Of a stretch of 64,000 nucleotides of DNA, positions 3,633 through 35,789 are shown piece after piece. The stretch spans positions 193,136 through 257,135 of the forward strand of contig JAXLXP010000007.1 of NCBI GenBank assembly GCA_046327955.1, in the 5' to 3' direction. The notes beneath the pieces were generated by a model. The model ran no database searches. It was not told the origin of the DNA and worked only from the letters and a program-made list of their open reading frames with translations. Within the stretch, counting starts at the first letter, position 1. Every line of letters begins with the position of its first letter. The DNA comes from Candidatus Binatia bacterium (GTDB lineage: Bacteria > Desulfobacterota > Binatia > DP-6). A program made the translations under genes and the position numbers.

Positions 3633-3669
3633 TCTTGGATCCCCTATCGGCAACCGTGCGGAAGATCAG

Positions 3670-4707
<1,038 letters not shown>

Positions 4708-8776: not shown

Positions 8777-9514
8777 TCAGTACCGTACGGTGACCAGGAC
8801 GAGCCCGTGCGGCGGTGCCGTGGCGCCAGCGGCAGTCCGATCCCGCCCGGCGAGCACCGCCGCCATCGACGCGGCCGGACGCACGCCCAGCCCGATCTCG
8901 ACGAGCGTGCCGACGATGTTGCGCACCATGTGCTTGAGGAACGCGGTCGCCTCGATGCGATAGGTGACGAGCGGCGCCTCGACCGTGAGCCGACTCTCGA
9001 ACACCCGCCGCACGGTCGTCCGCGCCGGCGCGGGGTCGGCGCCCTCGAACGCCGCGAAGTCGTGCTCACCCTCGAGCACCTGCGCCGCCGCGGCCATCGC
9101 GTCCAGCGCGAGCAGCCGCGGAAGGTGCCACGCGTAGCGCCGCCAGAACGGCGACGGCGCCGGCGCGTTCCAGATGCGATACTCGTACCGCCGGCTCTTG
9201 GCGTGGCGGCGCGGGTCGAACGCGTCGTCGACGACGTCGATGGACCGCACCGCGAGCTCGGGCGGCGTGAGCGCGTTCAAGCTCCGCTGGAGGCGGTCCA
9301 GGTCCTCCGGCACCCGCGAGACCGCGGCCGTCGCCACCTGGCCGCACGCGTGCACGCCGGCGTCGGTCCGCCCCGCGCCACGCACGCGCGTCGGCTCGCG
9401 CAGCGCCGTGGTGAGCGCCCGCTCGAGCGCGTCCTGCACCGCGAGCCCGTTCGGCTGCGCCTGCCAGCCGACGAAGGCGTGCCCCTCGTATTCGACGTGA
9501 AGGCGAAGCTGCAT
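8777..9514 (-). CDS. truA: tRNA pseudouridine(38-40) synthase TruA
   Basis: MQLRLHVEYEGHAFVGWQAQP...RTDAGVHA catalytic-Asp region. Start ATG 9514. Confidence 0.85.
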   Translation of the reverse strand: MQLRLHVEYEGHAFVGWQAQPNGLAVQDALERALTTALREPTRVRGAGRTDAGVHACGQVATAAVSRVPEDLDRLQRSLNALTPPELAVRSIDVVDDAFDPRRHAKSRRYEYRIWNAPAPSPFWRRYAWHLPRLLALDAMAAAAQVLEGEHDFAAFEGADPAPARTTVRRVFESRLTVEAPLVTYRIEATAFLKHMVRNIVGTLVEIGLGVRPAASMAAVLAGRDRTAAGATAPPHGLVLVTVRY

Positions 9515-9528
9515 GCGGGTGCGGCGTC

Positions 9529-10554
9529 CTACAGGTAGTCGTGGACGAGGATCTCCGCCACCTGCACGGCGGTCAGCGCCGCCCCTTTGCGCACGCTGTC
9601 GAGCGCGATCCACAGCGACAGCCCATGCTCGACGGTCGCGTCCGCCCGGATGCGACCGACGTGCATGGTGTCGGAGCCGGTGACCTCCGCCGGCGTCGGG
9701 AACGGACCGTCGGGCACGTCGTGCACCGTCACGCCACGCCCGGCGCGCAGGACGTCGGTGGCGGCTTCCACGTCGAGGCGCGTGTCGGTCTCGAGTACGA
9801 CGCTCATCGCCGAGCCGAAGAACATCGGCACGCGCACCGCGGTGACGTGGATCGGCAGGCCGGGGTGGTCGAGTACCCGGCGCGTCTCTTCGGCGACGTG
9901 CAGCTCGTGGACCGTGGCGCCGTCCGGGGCGAGCCCGCCCACCTGCGGCAGGCAGTTGAACGCGAGCGGACGTGAGAAGCGCGAACGCCGCTGGCCGCGC
10001 TGGTTGAGGAGGTCGATCGTCTCCTGCGAGAACGCGCGCAGCGCGCCCTGGCCCGCGCTCGCCACACCCTGGTACGTGGAGACGATCACGCGGCGCAGAC
10101 CCGCCGCCTCCAGGAGCGGCGCCAGCACGACCGTCAGGGCGATCGTCGTGGCACTGGGAATGGCGAGCATCCCCGACTCGCGGCGATCCGCGATCGCGGT
10201 CGGATTCACCTCCGGAACCACGAGCGGAACGGTCGGATCGAGGCGAAAGCGACTCGAACAGTCGATGACCGCCGCTCCCGCCGCGGCCGCCCGCGGCGCG
10301 TGCTCCGCGGCGAGACCGGGGCCGGCGGCGAAGAAGGCGACGTCGATCCCGTCGAACGACTCCGGGCCGAGCAGTGCGACCTTGCAGCTCCCGCCCTCGT
10401 CGTCCTCGACCTCCGCGCCCGCGCTGCGAATGGAGCCCAACGCCCGCAGGCTGCCGACCGTGAGCTGGCGCTCGCGCAGCAGTCCCGCGATCTCGCGGCC
10501 AACCAAACCCGTCGCCCCGACGATCGCAATCGCCAGCGTGCGGTCATTCTCCAC
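9529..10554 (-). CDS. asd: aspartate-semialdehyde dehydrogenase
   Basis: [15 protein letters not shown]... and catalytic-cysteine region NCLPQ. GTG start at 10554 overlaps the leuB 3' end. Confidence 0.85.
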
Positions 10555-11656
10555 TCAGACCTCCAGTCGAGCGCGCACGGGCGCCCATCTCCCGGCAACC
10601 GACCGCCGGCGCACCCTTCTCCACGAGATCCGCCGTGCGTACGCCGTCGGCGAGGACGCCCGCAACGGCGCGCTCGACCGCCTCGGCGACCGCCGGAGCC
10701 CCGAGCGAGTAGCGACAGAGCATCGCCGCCGAGAGGATGGCGGCGAGTGGATTTGCCCGATCCTGGCCGGCGATGTCGGGCGCCGAACCGTGGATCGGCT
10801 CGTAGAGGCCACGGCACCGCTCACCCGGAACGGGCGCACCGGCGAGCGACGCGGACGGCAGCAGGCCCATCGAGCCGGCCAGCATCGACGCCTCGTCCGT
10901 GAGGATGTCGCCGAAGAGGTTCTCGGTCGCGATCACGTCGAAGTCGCGCGGGCGGCGGATGAGGTGCATCGCCATCGCATCGACCAGCACGTGCTCGCAC
11001 GTGACATCGGGATACTCGCGCGCGATCTCGGTGGCGACCTCGCGCCACAGCCGCGACGTCGACAGCACGTTGGCCTTGTCGACGGAGGTGAGCTTCTTCC
11101 GCCGCTGCCGCGCGAGCGCGAAGGACGCGTGCAGGAGCCGCGCGATCTCCTGCTCCGTGTAGACGCAGGTGTCGACCGCCTCGCGGCCGGCGGGTCCCAG
11201 CCGACGCGCGCTCGGCTGGCCGAAGTAGATGCCGCCGACCAGCTCGCGCACGACGACGAGGTCGACGCCCTCGAGGACCTCGCGGCGGAGCGCCGAGCCG
11301 GAGATCAGCTCGGGAACCGTCCAGACCGGACGCAGGTTCGCGTACACCCCGAGCCCCCTGCGCAACCCGAGCAGGCCCTGCTCGGGCCGCACCGCCGCCT
11401 TCGGGTCGTCCCACTTCGGCCCACCGACCGCGCCCAGCAGGACCGCGTCCGCCCGCCGCGCGCGCTCGAGCTCGGCCGGTGGGAGCGCGACGCCCGTGGC
11501 GTCGATGGCTCCGCCGCCGATGAGCCCCTCCTCGAGGTGGATCGCGAGGCCGTGCCGTGGAGCAACCATCTCGAGGACGGCGACGGCCTCGGCCGTGACC
11601 TCCGGTCCGATCCCGTCCCCGGGGAAGACCACGATGGTCGCCCTGGTCCCGCTCAT
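10544..11656 (-). CDS. leuB: 3-isopropylmalate dehydrogenase
   Basis: [20 protein letters not shown]...[26 protein letters not shown]. The ATG overlaps the leuA stop (ATGA). Confidence 0.9.
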
Positions 11657-13197
11657 GGCCCCACCTCACTGCACTGCTGCCGGTACTGGCGCCGATACTC
11701 GAGCTTGTTGAGCGCGTTCAGGTACGCGAGCACGCTCGCCTGGATGATGTCGGTGTGGCTCCCCTGGCCCGTCACCGTGATGCCGTCCTCCGAGACCAGG
11801 CACGAGACCTCGCCCTGCGCGTCGGTCCCGCCGGTGATCGCCTTGACGGCGTACCGCTCGAGCTGCGGGTGGCGCGCCGTCAAGTCGCCGATCGCCTTGT
11901 AACAGGCGTCGACCATGCCGTCGCCCGTCCCGTGGCCGAGCGCCTCCTCGCCGTCGATGCGGAGCTTCACGGTCGCGTGCGGGACGGCCATGCTGGAGGA
12001 CGTGACGTTCAGGTACACGAGCTCGTAGCGGTCGCGGACGGCGCGCGTCGACTCCTGCGCCACGAGCGCGATCAGGTCCTCGTCGTAGACGTGCTTCTTC
12101 GAGTCAGCCAATGCCTTGAACCGATCGAACAGCCGATTCATGTCGACGTCGGTCGCGTCGAGGCCGAGCTCCTTCAGCCGGCTGACGAGCGCGTGACGCC
12201 CCGAGTGCTTGCCGAGCACGATCCGATTGGACGCGAGCCCGACCGTGGCGGGGTTCATGATCTCGTAGCTCTGCCGGTACTTAAGCACCCCATCCTGGTG
12301 GATGCCCGCCTCGTGCGCGAACGCGTTGTCGCCCACGACCGGTTTGTTGATCGGGATCGGGATGCCGGTGATCTGCGAGACGAGATGGCTGGTCGCATAG
12401 ATCTCCTCGGTCACGATGCCCGTCTCGATGCCGAGGAAGCCGTCGGGGCGCGTCTTGATCGCCATGACGACTTCTTCGAGCGAGGTGTTCCCGGCGCGCT
12501 CGCCGAGGCCGTTGATCGTACACTCGATCTGCCGCGCCCCGCCCTGCACCGCCGCGAGTGAGTTCGCCACCGCCATGCCGAGGTCGTTGTGGCAGTGGGC
12601 GCTCCAGATGACCGTCCCCCCGCCCCGGACCTTCTGTCGCAGCGTCCGGAAGAGCTGGCCGTGCTCCTGCGGGAGCGCGTACCCGGTGGTGTCCGGCACG
12701 TTGACCGTGCAGGCTCCGGCCTCGATCACCGCGCCGAACACCTGCATCATGTAGTCGAGGTCGCTGCGCGACGCGTCCTCGGCCGAGAACTCGACGTAGT
12801 CGAGGTGCCGCCGTGCACGCGCTACCGCCCACGCCGCCGCGTCGAGCACCTCCTGCCGGCTCATCATGAGCTTGTGCTGGAGGTGAATGTCCGACGTTGC
12901 GATGAAGACGTGGATCCCGGGACGCTTGGCCTTCTCGACCGCGCGAATGGCGCGGTCGATGTCGTGCTCGCGGGTGCGGGCGAGCGACAGCACGATCGGC
13001 TTGGTCACCGCCTGCGCGATGCGCTGCACCGACTCGAAGTCCCCGTCCGACGAGGCAGCGAAACCCGCCTCGATCACGTCGACGCCGAGTCGCTCGAGCT
13101 GGCGCGCGATGACCAGCTTCTCCTCCGCGTTCATCGTCGCCCCCGGCGACTGTTCGCCGTCGCGGAGCGTCGTGTCGAAGATCTGTACCCGATCCAT
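11653..13197 (-). CDS. leuA: 2-isopropylmalate synthase
   Basis: [19 protein letters not shown]...[17 protein letters not shown]. Start ATG 13197. Confidence 0.9.
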
Positions 13198-13223
13198 GGT
13201 CCGTCCTCTCCCCTTCCGCCCCT

Positions 13224-13267
13224 CCAAAAAGAAAAGCGCCACAGGCGGAAGGCCCGCCCGTGGCGCT
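13224..13267 (-). terminator. intrinsic terminator / attenuator hairpin in the leuA leader
   Basis: Minus strand GCGCCACGGGCGGGCCTTCCGCCTGTGGCGC followed by TTTTCTTTTT, about 25 nt upstream of the leuA ATG. Confidence 0.6.
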
Positions 13268-13291
13268 CACCAGAGTCGTGTTGGTGGTTCC

Positions 13292-13378
13292 CTACACTCC
13301 GGCGAGGGCCGCGGGCGGGCTGCCGAGCAGCAGGCCCAAGGCCAAGCTTTCCGCGAGTCGTAGGGAACGTCGCATCAT
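13292..13378 (-). CDS. leucine-rich leader peptide (leu attenuator), MMRRSLRLAESLALGLLLGSPPAALAGV
   Basis: 28-codon ORF with 8 Leu codons including a CTG-CTG-CTC run, immediately upstream of the terminator hairpin preceding leuA. Confidence 0.5.
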   Translation of the reverse strand: MMRRSLRLAESLALGLLLGSPPAALAGV

Positions 13379-13387
13379 TGGTTGGGC

Positions 13388-14218
13388 TTAGCCGCGGTGT
13401 CCCGGGTTGTCAAGCACGGAGGGCGCGGATGGCGGCGCGTCGCGCCGCCCGGAGGTGTGCCGGTGTCGCACCACGCGCGCGATCCGCCCGACCGGGCCCG
13501 ACAGCGCGTACGTGACCGTGCCGAGGAACAGCATCACCTCCGGCGCCCCGATCGTGACCGCGGCGAGGAAGATGAGCCCGATCAGGACCGAGAAGGGATG
13601 ACGATGATGGAGCCGGATGTCCTTGAAGGAGAAGTAGCGCACCTCGCTCACCATCAAGCCAGCGACGCCGAACGTGACGAGCAGCATCGTCAGATGCTTG
13701 TTCGGGTCGCCGAGAAAGCCGAGACGGTAGTACAGCAGGACCGTCGTGGCGATCACGTCCGCGGCCGCAGGAATCGGAAGGCCGAGGAAATGGCGCTTCT
13801 CGACCGTACCGACCTGGACGTTGAATCGCGCCAGCCGAAGCGCGCCGGCGGTCACATAGAGCGACGCGGCGAGCCAGCCCCACTGGCCCCACTGCCCGAG
13901 GGCCCAGCGATAGAGCAGGATCGCCGGCGCGACGCCGAAGGCGATGAGGTCCGCCAGCGAGTCGTACTGCACGCCGAACGAGCTGGCGGTGCGCGTGAGC
14001 CGGGCGATGCGACCGTCGAGCATGTCCGCGACCTGCGCCAGCAGGATCATGATCGCCGCCTGCCGGTACTGGCCCTTCTGCGTCAGGATGATCGAGTAGA
14101 ACCCGGCGAAGAGCCCGGCCGTCGTGACCAGGTTGGGCAACAGGTAGACGCCGTTGCGCAGTGGCGGGATGCGCCGGCGCGGACGGCCCGACACGACGCT
14201 GAAGCGCGGGCCGGTCAC
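13388..14218 (-). CDS. pssA: CDP-diacylglycerol--serine O-phosphatidyltransferase
   Basis: LPNLVTTAGLFAGFYSI...DMLDGRIAR...SLADLIAFGVAP CDP-alcohol phosphatidyltransferase motifs. Start is either GTG 14218 (GTGA overlap with psd stop) or ATG 14254. Confidence 0.8.
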   Translation of the reverse strand: MTGPRFSVVSGRPRRRIPPLRNGVYLLPNLVTTAGLFAGFYSIILTQKGQYRQAAIMILLAQVADMLDGRIARLTRTASSFGVQYDSLADLIAFGVAPAILLYRWALGQWGQWGWLAASLYVTAGALRLARFNVQVGTVEKRHFLGLPIPAAADVIATTVLLYYRLGFLGDPNKHLTMLLVTFGVAGLMVSEVRYFSFKDIRLHHRHPFSVLIGLIFLAAVTIGAPEVMLFLGTVTYALSGPVGRIARVVRHRHTSGRRDAPPSAPSVLDNPGHRG

Positions 14219-14868
14219 GCGGGGACCCTCGCCACGGCGGTCGTCCCGGCACACACCCGCTCCCCGCGCTGCACGAGGGGCTCGACGCCCGGCGGCACCC
14301 AGAGGTCGACGCGCGAGCCGAACATGATCATCCCCATGCGCTCGCCGCGACGGACTCGCTCACCCGCCGCGACGCGACACACGATGCGGCGGGCGATCGC
14401 GCCTGCGATCTGGACCATGACGAAGGGCCGGCCGTCCGCGGCCTCGATCTCGACGCTGTTGCGCTCGTTGTCGAGCGAGGCCTTGTCGGCGTACGCGGCG
14501 CGAAACCGGCCCGGCGTATGCCGCACGCGCCGGACGACCCCGCTCACCGGGTTGCGGTTCACGTGCACGTTCATCGGCGACATGAAGATCGAGATGCGAG
14601 TGCCAGGAAGGCCCTCCTCGGTGGTCTGCCCCGCCACGACCTCGAGGATGCGTCCGTCCGCCGGAGAGACCACGAGGCGCTCGTCGGCGGGCGGGAACCG
14701 CTCCGGATCGCGAAAGAACCAGAGCGTGAACGCGAGAACGACGACGAGCGGTACGACCGCCGCCACGTGGCCCGCCAGCGTCCCGACCACGGCCACGGTG
14801 CCGAGCACCACGAGCACCGTCGCGATGACCGGCCAGCCCTCGGGCGCGATCGGCAGGACGCGCGGCAC
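14215..14868 (-). CDS. psd: phosphatidylserine decarboxylase (short, archaetidylserine-decarboxylase-like form)
   Basis: SPADGRILEV...ISIFMSPMNVHVNRNPVSG...GERMGMIMFGSRVDL. Confidence 0.8.
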   Translation of the reverse strand: MPRVLPIAPEGWPVIATVLVVLGTVAVVGTLAGHVAAVVPLVVVLAFTLWFFRDPERFPPADERLVVSPADGRILEVVAGQTTEEGLPGTRISIFMSPMNVHVNRNPVSGVVRRVRHTPGRFRAAYADKASLDNERNSVEIEAADGRPFVMVQIAGAIARRIVCRVAAGERVRRGERMGMIMFGSRVDLWVPPGVEPLVQRGERVCAGTTAVARVPA

Positions 14869-14871
14869 TCT

Positions 14872-15888
14872 CTAGTTGCGCGAACGATCGACCAGGCGGT
14901 TCGACTGGAGCCACGGCATGAGCCCGCGAAGCTTCGCGCCGACCTCCTCGATGGGGTGGTTGGCCGCCTCTTTGCGGAGCTCGCGGAAGTGCGGCATGCC
15001 GCACCGGTACTCCGTGATCCATTCGTCGGCGAACTTCCCCGACTGGATGTCGGCGAGAAGGCCCTTCATGGCCTCTCGCGCCTCCTTGCCGATCACGCGC
15101 TTGCCGCGCGTCATGTCGCCGTACTCGGCGGTGTTGCTGATCGAGTAGCGCATGTTGGCGATCCCGCCCTCGTAGATGAGGTCGACGATCAGCTTCACCT
15201 CGTGGACACACTCGAAGTACGCCATCTCGGGCGGGTAGCCGGCGGCGACGAGGGTCTCGTAGCCGGCCCGGATGAGCTCGGTGAGCCCGCCGCAGAGCAC
15301 GGCCTGCTCGCCGAAGAGATCGGTCTCGGTCTCGTCCTTGAACGTCGTCTCGATGACGCCGGCGCGCGCGCCACCGATCCCCTTCGCATAGGCGAGCCCG
15401 ACGCGCTTCGTGTCGCCCTTCGGATCCTGGGCGAGCGCGAGCAGGCACGGGACCCCGCGACCCTTCTGGTACTCGCCGCGCACGAGGTGCCCGGGCCCCT
15501 TCGGCGCGACCATGAACACGTTGACGTCCGCCGGTGGCACGATCTTCCGAAAATGGATGTTGAAGCCGTGGCCGAACGCGAGGTACTTGCCCGCCTTCAG
15601 CCCGGGGGCGATCTCCTTCTCGTATATCTCCGCCCCCTGCTCGTCGGGCACGAGCACCATGACGACGTCGGCCTCCTTCGCGGCCGTGGCCGTGTCGACG
15701 ACCCGGAGGCCTTCTTTCTCGGCCTTGGCGCGCGAGGCGCTGTCGGACCGCAGGCCCACCCGCACGTCGATTCCGCTGTCGCGCAGGTTGAGCGCGTGCG
15801 CATGTCCCTGGCTGCCGTAGCCGAGGATCGCGACTTTCTTGCCCTCCAGCGGCTCGAGGCTCGCATCTCCGTCGTGATAGATGTTCAT
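14872..15888 (-). CDS. ilvC: ketol-acid reductoisomerase
   Basis: [23 protein letters not shown]... full-length IlvC homology. Confidence 0.9.
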
Positions 15889-16486: not shown

Positions 16487-16723
16487 CTAGTGGTCTCGGT
16501 GCCGGGCGAGAATCTCCATGATCCTGTCCTTGCCGGCGAGCTTGAGCTTCTGCAGCCGCTTGCGCTCCACTTCCTCGTCGGGCGTGAGGTACGCTTTCTG
16601 ATGGAACGCGTTCAACCGCCGCTCGAGATCGACGTGTTCGTCGTAGTAGCGCCGCAGGTCCGGCTCACCATCGAGCAGCGTCTGGATGAGCTCCTCGTCC
16701 TTCTTCTCCATAGGGTCCCTCAA
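16487..16723 (-). CDS. DUF465 (YdcH-like) family protein
   Basis: 78 aa, ...[37 protein letters not shown]. Confidence 0.6.
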
Positions 16724-16776
16724 CCAGTCGCGATGCCAGCCAGGGGTGGCAGCCTAGCGTGCGGCAAAACGCCTTG

Positions 16777-17454
16777 TCAACGCGAGCCCGAGCGGTTGAT
16801 CTCCGCTTCCGATGGTCGCACGTAGACCGGCTCGGTCTCGCCCGGACTCGCCTCCTCGCCCGCGGCCAACCGTGCCCAGCCGAGGCGCGCCACCACGACG
16901 CCGCGCGGCGGGCAGAGGTCGAGCGCCAGGACGCGCGCGCGGGCCCCGAGCTGCGGATACGTCGCCGCCGCGTCGCCGACCAGGACGCAGCCCGTCGGAA
17001 GCCGCTCCAGCAACCGTGCCGGCGACAGCACCGCGTCCGGCGTCAAGCGGCGGCGCCCGGCCTCGGTCACGTCGAAGAGCGCGGCGTACACCTCCTGCTT
17101 GCGCGCGTCGAGCGCCGCGCAGACGATGGCGCCCGGCGCAACGGGGGCGGCGTGCGCCAACGCCTCCAGCGTCGGCACGGTGGCGAGCTTCAGCCCGCCC
17201 GCGAACACGATCCCCTTGGCGAGCGCGAGCCCGATCCGGAGCCCGGTGAACGATCCCGGCCCGATCGACACCGCCACCGCTTCGACGTCCTCGAGGCGCC
17301 GCTTGGCCCGCGCGAGCGCCTGCTCCACGAGCGCCGGGAGCGATGCCGCGTGCCCTCGCGTGGCGGGCGCACTCACCTCCGCGAGCGGGGCTCCATCGCT
17401 CACGACGCCCACCGCCGCGGTCCACGTCGCGGTGTCGATGCCGAGGACGAGCAG
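16777..17454 (-). CDS. tsaB: tRNA threonylcarbamoyladenosine biosynthesis protein TsaB
   Basis: ...LLVLGIDTATWTAAVGVVSDGAP...SIGPGSFTGLRIGLALAKG. The conserved N-terminus is encoded in frame upstream of the first canonical start (GTG 17412). The proposed start is CTG 17454, 5 nt after the rseP stop. Confidence 0.7.
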   Translation of the reverse strand: MLVLGIDTATWTAAVGVVSDGAPLAEVSAPATRGHAASLPALVEQALARAKRRLEDVEAVAVSIGPGSFTGLRIGLALAKGIVFAGGLKLATVPTLEALAHAAPVAPGAIVCAALDARKQEVYAALFDVTEAGRRRLTPDAVLSPARLLERLPTGCVLVGDAAATYPQLGARARVLALDLCPPRGVVVARLGWARLAAGEEASPGETEPVYVRPSEAEINRSGSR

Positions 17455-34818: not shown

Positions 34819-34879
34819 ATCGGCGCGCTGCGCTCGACAGCGGTCGTCCCCTCTGTTAGGAAATCCCGCTCCACCCCCT

Positions 34880-34964
34880 GCGAGGATGGCGGAACTGGCA
34901 GACGCGCTAGTTTGAGGGGCTAGTGGGCTAATAACCCGTGGGGGTTCAAGTCCCCCTCCTCGCA
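34880..34964 (+). tRNA. tRNA-Leu (anticodon GAG)
   Basis: GCGAGGA...GGCGGAACTGGCAGACGC...CTAGT-TTGAGGG-GCTAG...long variable arm...GGGGGTTCAAGTCCCCC...TCCTCGCA, 85 nt. It closely resembles enterobacterial tRNA-Leu. Confidence 0.85.
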
Positions 34965-35789
34965 TTTCGCAGCCCTTGCGTTTCCGCGTACTTGCGATGC
35001 CCTTGTCCCTCCCCCTCGGCGAGGGAGGGACAATTTGCCTGCTGTCCCGCTCGCGAACAGGGCCGGTTCCAGCTTTGCGAAGCGACGTAGCTCGCTCTCA
35101 CCTTCGGTTGGTAGCCACCGACCGTAGTGCCTTCGCAGCGTCGCGTAGCTGACGCCGGTCTGCGTCTCCAACCATGCGATCTTGACGCCGAGGGAGAGCG
35201 CCGTCGAGACGAACGTGTCCTTGGTGCAGTAGATGCCACGGACCCGGACGCCGAGCACGCGCAGGCAAGCGTACCAGTAGCGCGATGCGAACGCCTTTGG
35301 CTCGATTGGCTGCCCCTCGGTCGTCGTGAAGACGGGCGTGTTGGGTGCCACCCGAAGAGGTTGGATCGCGTGGAGCACGCGCACGCTTTCAGGGAACAGC
35401 TCGACCCAGCGATCCGCGCTCGCGGTCTTCGGCGCGCCGTACTCGTAGAGGTGCCGGCTCCGCTGGACGTGCAGGCGAGGGCCGTCGAAGTCCACGTCGC
35501 CCCACTGCAAGCCAGCCGCTTCGCTCGGGCGCATCCCGGTCCAGAAAAGAAGATGCACAAGGGCGTGGTACGGCAGGTGCGGTCGCATGCGGACCGACTC
35601 GGCGCCCCCGCGTCCGACGTGGAAGCCGAAGCGCTTGCGCTCGAACCAACCGAGGATGCGCTGGCGCTCCTGCGGCGTGAATGGGTCCGGACCTGGCGGG
35701 GTCCACTTCGGCCACTTCAACCGGCGCGGGAAAGGATCGACGAGCAACACGCGGTCGTCAAGTGCCTGGGCGATCACGGCGCCGAGCGT
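34920..35789 (-). pseudogene. int: tyrosine integrase, C-terminal (catalytic) fragment, disrupted by an IS256-family insertion
   Basis: ...TLGAVIAQALDDRVLLV...TGMRPSEAAGL...LRRHYGRW. The reading frame rejoins the N-terminal fragment across the 8-bp target duplication. The 3' end overlaps the tRNA-Leu 3' end on the opposite strand. Confidence 0.7.
34942..34968. repeat. attL: 27-bp direct repeat (tRNA-Leu 3' end) GGGTTCAAGTCCCCCTCCTCGCATTTC
   Basis: Identical copy at 46716-46742. Confidence 0.8.

Follow-up and report, generated by a model that had tools for sequence, protein, structure and literature searches.

The segment between pssA and leuA in a Candidatus Binatia genome very probably constitutes a ribosome-mediated, leucine-responsive transcription attenuator that controls leuA, and probably also leuB-asd-truA, from a promoter of its own inside the end of pssA. 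The in silico basis for this assignment comprises the parts themselves, the mutual exclusivity of two hairpins, a codon-position logic, conservation in relatives and covariation; the start of transcription, leader translation and the leucine response itself are what we infer. The whole 64,000-nucleotide stretch of DNA that was analyzed is called the window below.

RESULTS

A Leu-rich leader ORF adjoins a strong terminator upstream of leuA

The gene order on the minus strand of the window runs from rseP, via an ORF with a weak match to DUF465, to ilvN, ilvC, psd, pssA, the leader, leuA, leuB, asd, and truA (Table 1). The leuA product, a protein of 514 residues with its initiation codon at 13197, is recognized as 2-isopropylmalate synthase at 737 bits (NCBIfam). 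The leader ORF extends from an ATG at 13378 to a TAG at 13294-13292, and the stop codon of pssA (TAA, 13390-13388) lies 9 nt 5′ of its ATG. Two plus-strand ORFs over the same region, at 12589-13515 and 13382-14875, were discarded as artifacts of GC-rich sequence; they are without Pfam matches.

Eight of the 28 leader codons specify Leu (CTA, CTC, TTG, TTG, CTG, CTG, CTC, and CTC), five of them within the seven codons 12 to 18, compared with 9.9% Leu in the neighboring genes. TTG and CTA are rare, representing 4.2% and 2.0%, respectively, of the Leu codons in nine window genes. We compared this ORF with all short ORFs of the window, namely, the 117 that start with ATG and have 15 to 45 codons on either strand, and found it to be the only one with at least eight Leu codons and a run of three consecutive Leu residues. 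It has no match in Pfam.

The hairpin downstream of the leader, GAGCGCCACGGGCGG-gcctt-CCGCCTGTGGCGCTT followed by TTCTTTTT, begins 23 nt past the leader stop codon. Its stem comprises 16 pairs, 11 of them G-C, and its folding energy is about −31.9 kcal/mol (z −6.7 relative to dinucleotide shuffles). No other terminator on either strand of the window combines a stem of at least 10 bp with at least six T in the next nine bases. The hairpin leaves the Shine-Dalgarno region of leuA free, and only 26 nt separate the end of the U-run at 13224 from the ATG of leuA at 13197, so that there is no space for another promoter between them. The leader ORF and the strong terminator, each unique of its kind in the window, adjoin each other, a pairing that is more than chance.

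An earlier interpretation based on the letters alone (the sequence-only reading) had proposed a classical leucine attenuator at this position. The 28-codon minus-strand ORF that it described, with eight Leu codons including CTG-CTG-CTC, is present where it was placed, and its estimates of a GC-rich hairpin within about 25 nt of the ORF and of a U-tract about 25 nt before leuA agree well with the measured 23 and 26 nt. Its assignment of the DNA to a deltaproteobacterium-like genome was mistaken: the source is a Candidatus Binatia, of the phylum Candidatus Binatota, many MAGs of which carry the label “Deltaproteobacteria.”

The surroundings of the locus show some further features. ilvN has no adjoining ilvB large-subunit gene, and a search for a second attenuator upstream of ilvN found only the ORF mentioned above, of 74 residues (16487-16711, minus strand), whose DUF465 match of 21.6 bits lies under the cutoff of 25; it has a promoter-like site of its own, TTGACA-N17-TAGGCT, at about 16751-16779. 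At gathering score, Rfam identifies two tRNAs and nothing else in the whole window, namely, tRNA-Leu(GAG), which reads CUC and CUU (34879-34965, plus strand), and tRNA-Ala(GGC) (3669-3742, minus strand). The tightly packed leuA-leuB-asd-truA string behind the attenuator ends with truA (8777-9613, minus strand), which encodes tRNA pseudouridine 38-40 synthase. In Salmonella, truA (hisT) mutants derepress the his, leu, and ilv attenuators. A feedback loop from truA onto the attenuator is conceivable; ordinary synteny is equally possible.

TABLE 1 Features of the leuA upstream region, in coordinates of the window
Feature	Position	Strand	Basis or remark
Predicted −35 box, TTGACA	13408..13413	−	Inside the 3′ end of pssA; read from sequence
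Predicted −10 box, TAAGCC	13385..13390	−	17-nt spacer; promoter geometry of relatives
Leader ORF, 28 codons and TAG, MMRRSLRLAESLALGLLLGSPPAALAGV	13292..13378	−	Read from sequence
5′ “protector” hairpin (region 1:2)	13288..13367	−	Over most of the leader ORF; folding
Putative regulatory Leu codons L12 TTG, L14 TTG, L16 CTG, L17 CTG, L18 CTC	13325..13345	−	Ribosome-masking model
Region 2, antiterminator 5′ strand, GCCCGCCCGCGGC	13308..13320	−	Pairs with 13264..13252
Complete antiterminator, 69 nt	13252..13320	−	One long imperfect hairpin; folding
Terminator hairpin (regions 3:4)	13234..13268	−	5′ arm 13264..13252 common to the antiterminator
U-run, TTTTCTTTTT	13224..13233	−	Read from sequence
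leuA Shine-Dalgarno region, GGGGAGAGGA	13204..13213	−	Read from sequence
leuA (2-isopropylmalate synthase)	11653..13197	−	First gene of the string leuA-leuB-asd-truA

The position of the leader ribosome would select between two hairpins

Region 2 corresponds to codons S20 to A24 of the leader, including a conserved Pro-Pro pair, and it can pair with GCCACGGGCGGGC, the 5′ arm of the terminator. The complete antiterminator, with the leader stop codon near its tip, has a folding energy of −51.2 kcal/mol (z −8.4). Since the antiterminator and the terminator both use 13264..13252, they are mutually exclusive. The sequence-only reading had pointed to mutually exclusive structures as what folding ought to reveal, and the hairpin at 13320..13252 bears this out. 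The 5′ protector hairpin pairs the Leu-codon region with region 2 (−48.5 kcal/mol, z −3.8), and none of 200 shuffles was equally stable. In 24 relatives, the pairing of region 2 to upstream sequence was no better than in shuffled controls.

We modeled the effect of a translating ribosome by masking the RNA from its 5′ end to the 3′ edge of the ribosome and by calculating, for each codon in the A site, how probable the base pairs are. When one of codons ~11 to 16 of the window leader (S-L-A-L-G-L) occupies the A site, the probability of the antiterminator is ~1 and that of the terminator is ~0; once codon 17 is reached, and up to the stop codon, the terminator probability is ~0.9. When the ribosome is at codons 2 to 9, region 2 pairs with what is left of region 1, which is predicted to lead to termination. 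Footprint edges of +9, +12, and +15 moved the permissive range by one codon either way and left the logic unchanged. In this model, the dependence on codon position follows the scheme of four regions known from classical attenuators. Both of the rare TTG codons are sensitive, as are the first one or two codons of the CTG-CTG-CTC run. The sequence-only reading had singled out this run, but the model places the sensing mainly at codons 11 to 16, with the two TTG.

We propose the following course of events. Transcription would start from the promoter within the end of pssA, at the leader AUG or a few bases from it, and a ribosome would translate the 28-codon leader while RNA polymerase moves on. 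If charged tRNA-Leu is scarce, the ribosome would stall in the L-A-L-G-L-L-L stretch and cover region 1, leaving codons 20 to 24 free to pair with GCCACGGGCGGGC as it emerges. Formation of the 69-nt antiterminator hairpin would prevent that of the terminator, and the polymerase would read into leuA. If leucine is plentiful, the ribosome would reach the UAG near the hairpin tip, unwind the 5′ strand of the antiterminator, and free GCCACGGGCGGGC, which would then pair with the downstream arm, and the polymerase would terminate at the U-run.

A putative promoter in the end of pssA suggests a leaderless start

The first three bases of the predicted −10 box of the window are the stop codon of pssA. 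At 49 of 53 related loci, TTGAC(A/T) precedes the leader ATG by 35 to 42 nt, with a mode of 38 to 39 nt; four relatives differ, with 47 to 63 nt and Shine-Dalgarno-like sequences. In metagenome relatives, TTGAC lies 34 to 41 nt before the leader ATG. The −10 box of the relatives is a TA(G/C)AAT-like hexamer that follows a spacer of 16 to 18 nt, and its T1 and its A2 are each present in 46 of 49 loci. A generic sigma-70 scan of the window region called no promoter, because the −10 box of the window is weak. From these positions and sequences, we infer that TTGACA/TAAGCC functions as a promoter.

Between the end of the −10 box and the ATG there are 6 to 13 nt in the relatives (mode, 9 nt) and 6 nt in the window, and transcription is therefore expected to start at the A of the ATG or 1 to 2 bases from it. 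No Shine-Dalgarno sequence precedes the leader ATG in the window, and usually none is found in the relatives. The promoter geometry and the missing Shine-Dalgarno sequence together make a leaderless mRNA the probable template for translation of the leader.

Window-type leaders start with GTG in L082 and L093 (and in the truncated L002), with TTGACA at the same distance (38 nt) as in ATG-type leaders; on a leaderless transcript, initiation of the L082/L093 type would use a 5′-terminal GUG. In the window, ribosomes that terminate at the end of pssA do so 9 nt before the leader ATG. Translational coupling between pssA and the leader is possible on long transcripts in the window genome, and it is unlikely in the relatives because the gap between pssA and the leader is about 100 nt there.

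The probable attenuator unit accompanies leuA in many Binatia

Scanning for loci anchored on LeuA, with one genome per species, yielded 80 loci whose LeuA proteins are 56 to 81% identical. Nearly all come from Candidatus Binatia MAGs, many of them under the deltaproteobacterial label. Of the 80, 53 carry the attenuator unit, which makes 54 of 81 Candidatus Binatia loci once the window is counted. Screening metagenomes with a pattern that contains regions 2 and 3 yielded a further 22 contigs of the window type (e.g., L087, MRKISLRLAESLPGLLLTSPPAALAGV). The shared characters are the Leu run, the rare Leu codons, the in-frame ATG, and compensatory changes in both helices.

The Leu-rich ORF of the relatives is located 90 to 190 nt upstream of leuA and has 23 to 38 codons, with a median of 26% Leu. 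Two subfamilies can be distinguished, one with the core GLLLGLLLS-PP, to which the window belongs, and one of the Binataceae type with the core LL-ELLLSLALTGAHA. At 51 of 53 loci, the first ATG that follows the −10 box shares its frame with the Leu run, over 13 different spacings from 21 to 66 nt. CTT makes up 21.6% of the Leu codons in the leaders versus 3.5% in the adjacent leuA genes, and CTA makes up 9.7% versus 0.9%. The kept frame and the rare codons speak, indirectly, for translation of the ORF. CUU, the most enriched codon in the leaders of the relatives, is one that the tRNA-Leu(GAG) of the window can read. The synteny ilvC-psd-pssA-leuA-leuB is kept in most relatives. The attenuator unit stays with leuA even at loci without an upstream pssA, which supports the idea of an autonomous promoter-leader-terminator module.

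Given that the hairpin sits after pssA and that spurious ORFs are common in high-GC DNA, it might be a plain intrinsic terminator of ilvN-ilvC-psd-pssA, with an ORF present by chance and leuA expressed from leaky read-through. About 22 relatives, which have a terminator-like hairpin at the same position without a leader ORF, would also fit this explanation. It does not account, however, for an ORF, a Leu run, and a reading frame that are kept over the 13 spacings, for a promoter-like site at a fixed distance from the leader ATG, or for a unit that goes with leuA where pssA is absent. An alternative hairpin of −51 kcal/mol over the terminator arm would have no role, and only 1 of 117 short window ORFs is this rich in Leu. 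We thus regard a plain terminator as very improbable and retain the attenuator.

At the loci without a leader, about 22 in Binatia, only a conserved hairpin precedes leuA, and the leader is therefore not indispensable in the class. This hairpin, ACUCCCG-YN-GGC...GCC-GCGGGAGU followed by a U-run, is situated between pssA and leuA, 25 to 35 nt before the ATG of the latter; it is conserved in sequence and terminator-like, with a conserved asymmetric bulge (L018:2895-2992; L005, L008, L015, L022 to L024, L029, L032 to L039, L052, L053, L056, L059, L062, L072, and L079). An Rfam scan of 16 leader-less relatives revealed no T-box, and the hairpin itself is without an Rfam match.

Other hairpins were observed in relatives that have the attenuator. 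In many of them, a second hairpin with a U-run directly follows the first terminator (L009:2930-2975, L011:2900-2950, L083, L085, and others), with either a different stem (GGGCUGCGGG...CUCGCAGCCC) or another copy of the GGGCCACGGGC motif; the window has one terminator only. At L044:2955-2997 and in the Binataceae-type loci L043, L047, L073, L075, and L076, the conserved hairpin CCCGCGGCGAYGAUGCGGGAGG is found between the terminator and leuA. Its 3′ arm overlaps the leuA Shine-Dalgarno sequence in the Binataceae-type loci, and it could be an additional translational control.

Both helices covary, and the permissive positions end with the Leu cluster

In an alignment of 25 sequences (group 1), 94.4% of the terminator cells are paired and five pairs are doubly changed, a level that none of 500 shuffles reached, it being understood that the aligned sequences are kin and that shuffle statistics therefore overstate their independence. 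The terminator is the sole structure that RNAalifold predicts without guidance. The 7-bp core of the antiterminator can pair in essentially all 25 aligned relatives, with four pairs changed on both sides, and its compensatory changes were matched by 3 of 500 shuffles, a figure subject to the same reservation. In L027, a C>U change in region 2, a G>A change in region 3, and a C>U change in region 4 occurred together. Exchanges of A-U to G-C or C-G are found in the inner antiterminator helix of 18 close relatives of the window; the pair counts of this helix and of the 5′ half of the leader are lowered by a one-base register shift between subgroups, as MAFFT is not structure-aware. In the Binataceae (group 2), the antiterminator is formed by GGCCCAC with GUGGGCC and is 97% paired, with A-U to U-A exchanges, and the main helix of the terminator is 99% paired, with five doubly changed pairs.

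Covariation also bears on the nature of the ORF product. If the ORF encoded a functional small hydrophobic peptide, e.g., a membrane microprotein, rather than a sensor, one would understand that the peptide is kept in many genomes and that its conserved core, LLLGLLL, is hydrophobic. However, the conserved residues outside the Leu run track their RNA partners: Pro-Pro is encoded by CCGCCC, which pairs with GGGCGG, and in the Binataceae the alternatives Ala-His-Ala and Ala-Leu-Ala covary with GTGGGCC and GAGGGCC in the terminator loop. The N terminus is not conserved, the leader has no Pfam counterpart, and its stop codon is inside the antiterminator. A peptide with a function of its own is thus extremely improbable, and we consider the ORF to be the sensor part of the attenuator.

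We extended the ribosome model to the relatives. In 44 loci, the 3′ limit of the antiterminator-permissive positions coincides with the end of the Leu cluster, the limit being determined with a “before the 3′ arm is made” model, which is a weaker, kinetic argument. Leu accounts for 70% of the six codons up to the permissive limit versus 16% elsewhere in these leaders, and the match between the limit and the Leu cluster is seen in two subfamilies whose antiterminator sequences differ. The kinetic model was used because, when folding was computed at equilibrium with the ribosome masked, the antiterminator outcompeted the terminator in only a subset of the relatives. For the remaining ones, one has to assume, as is customary, that the antiterminator has a kinetic advantage and is formed first.

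Several leader codons are conserved at synonymous positions, which argues for a constraint at the RNA level: the first Pro codon is CCG in 25 of 25 leaders, and CTG-CTG-CTT-AGC occurs in many loci. Such a constraint is what a structured RNA switch would impose that senses a protein, a tRNA, or a metabolite rather than the translating ribosome, the ORF being a by-product, and a T-box is indeed found 5′ of leuA in Geobacter (PMC2700814). Nevertheless, a cmscan of 12800-13800 with Rfam at E ≤ 10 gave only weak, terminator-shaped matches to unrelated families, with no Leu_leader and no T-box. The 5′ half of the ORF varies in sequence and length but always keeps its frame and an ATG at the promoter-defined 5′ end, and the amino acid that is enriched, with rare codons among those used, is the one that the regulated pathway makes. 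In addition, the switch point of the ribosome model is the Leu cluster in both subfamilies despite their different pairing sequences. A switch of this kind therefore appears quite improbable to us. The classical leucine attenuator upstream of leuA is, by contrast, supported by folding, by the ribosome model, by covariation, and by the conservation of the leader ORF, the Leu run, the terminator, and the antiterminator in the 53 loci and the 22 metagenome contigs. Neither of the contrary outcomes that the sequence-only reading had named and that computation can address, a lack of alternative pairing and a leader missing from relatives, was observed.

DISCUSSION

A more comprehensive reading combines these elements, and we advance it tentatively, as a possibility that we would not yet back. 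An independently evolved attenuator family would exist throughout Binatota, with its leader on a leaderless mRNA transcribed from the promoter in the end of pssA; long ilvN-ilvC-psd-pssA transcripts, devoid of ribosome entry at the leader, would default to the terminator fold, which would make the element an operon boundary. Were this true, one element would be both an insulator and a leucine sensor. It would moreover take the pssA-leuA site, which is occupied by a T-box in Geobacter and, in other Binatia, by a conserved hairpin that is unexplained, and such differing elements would suggest repeated replacement of leuA regulators at one locus.

The mechanism of the Binatia attenuator family is textbook, and our understanding of attenuation itself is unchanged. 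Nevertheless, the family is unreported in Binatota and matches no Rfam family; a search of the literature on leucine attenuators in Binatia/Binatota or in deltaproteobacteria found no report. It provides a well-supported regulatory annotation for an uncultured, soil-abundant phylum with almost no known gene regulation, and it extends leader-peptide attenuation past Proteobacteria, Actinobacteria, and Firmicutes. The approximately 75 natural variants fall into two subfamilies that differ in their pairing sequences, and a covariance model for genome annotation could be built from them. Binatia would also be a second lineage in which attenuator leaders appear leaderless, which bears on transcription-translation coupling with ribosome loading at the 5′ end.

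Leader-peptide attenuation of leu and ilv genes was reportedly predicted in alpha- and beta-proteobacteria by Vitreschak et al. in 2004. The view of the sequence-only reading that leu attenuation is mainly a gamma-proteobacterial matter proves too narrow, since it has been described or predicted in Actinobacteria (PMC1262725, PMC5784534) and in Staphylococcus (PMC5794164). A leucine-rich attenuator peptide is described for the branched-chain amino acid genes (ilv-leu) of Staphylococcus aureus. Unlike the Binatia element, it belongs to Firmicutes, precedes the entire ilv-leu operon, and acts in combination with CodY; the two apparently have no sequence relationship.

The Corynebacterium attenuators (ilvB, leuA, and trp) resemble the Binatia element in being high-GC, with a Leu-run leader before leuA, and in being leaderless, probably so in Binatia. 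Corynebacterium diphtheriae, a high-GC organism, has a Leu-run leader before leuA, MNRANLLLLRRGGSQA. The Corynebacterium ilvB leader transcript was mapped to the start codon and is thus leaderless (PMC5784534), and in a three-hairpin model the 5′ end of a leaderless mRNA forms an anti-antiterminator (PMC11857589). The two groups belong to different phyla and have unrelated sequences, and the leaderless start mapped in Corynebacterium is suggested by promoter geometry in Binatia. In the actinobacterial LEU element, too, leuA is preceded by an ORF that contains consecutive Leu codons, but the element is described as a pseudoknot in which the basal stem joins the Leu codons to the Shine-Dalgarno box of leuA; its control is translational, with no obvious terminator (PMC1262725). 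In contrast, the Binatia element has a canonical terminator and an antiterminator and leaves the Shine-Dalgarno sequence free.

In Geobacter, leuA presumably lies in the same psd-pssA-leuA neighborhood. The T-box leader 5′ of it (PMC2700814) likewise regulates leuA by a choice between terminator and antiterminator that reports the charging of tRNA-Leu. A T-box, however, binds uncharged tRNA directly and needs no translation, and none is detectable in the window.

The enterobacterial leuL (Rfam RF00512, Leu_leader) is similar in design. Like the Binatia element, it has a leader of 28 codons with clustered Leu codons, some of them rare, and an intrinsic terminator that immediately precedes leuA and whose 5′ arm also serves the antiterminator; in both, a stalled ribosome selects the fold, as predicted by the model for Binatia. 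The leuL architecture ascribed to the locus by the sequence-only reading thus applies to the working design but not to ancestry, as there is no homology in sequence or structure and no match to RF00512 at E ≤ 10. The Leu codons of the Binatia leader are interspersed (L-A-L-G-L-L-L), whereas leuL has four in a row. In Binatia, the antiterminator forms a single long hairpin that carries the stop codon close to its tip, a 5′ UTR and a Shine-Dalgarno sequence are apparently lacking from the leader, the predicted promoter is inside the preceding gene, and the operon is leuA-leuB-asd-truA rather than leuABCD. The Binatia element is therefore analogous, not homologous, to enterobacterial leuL.
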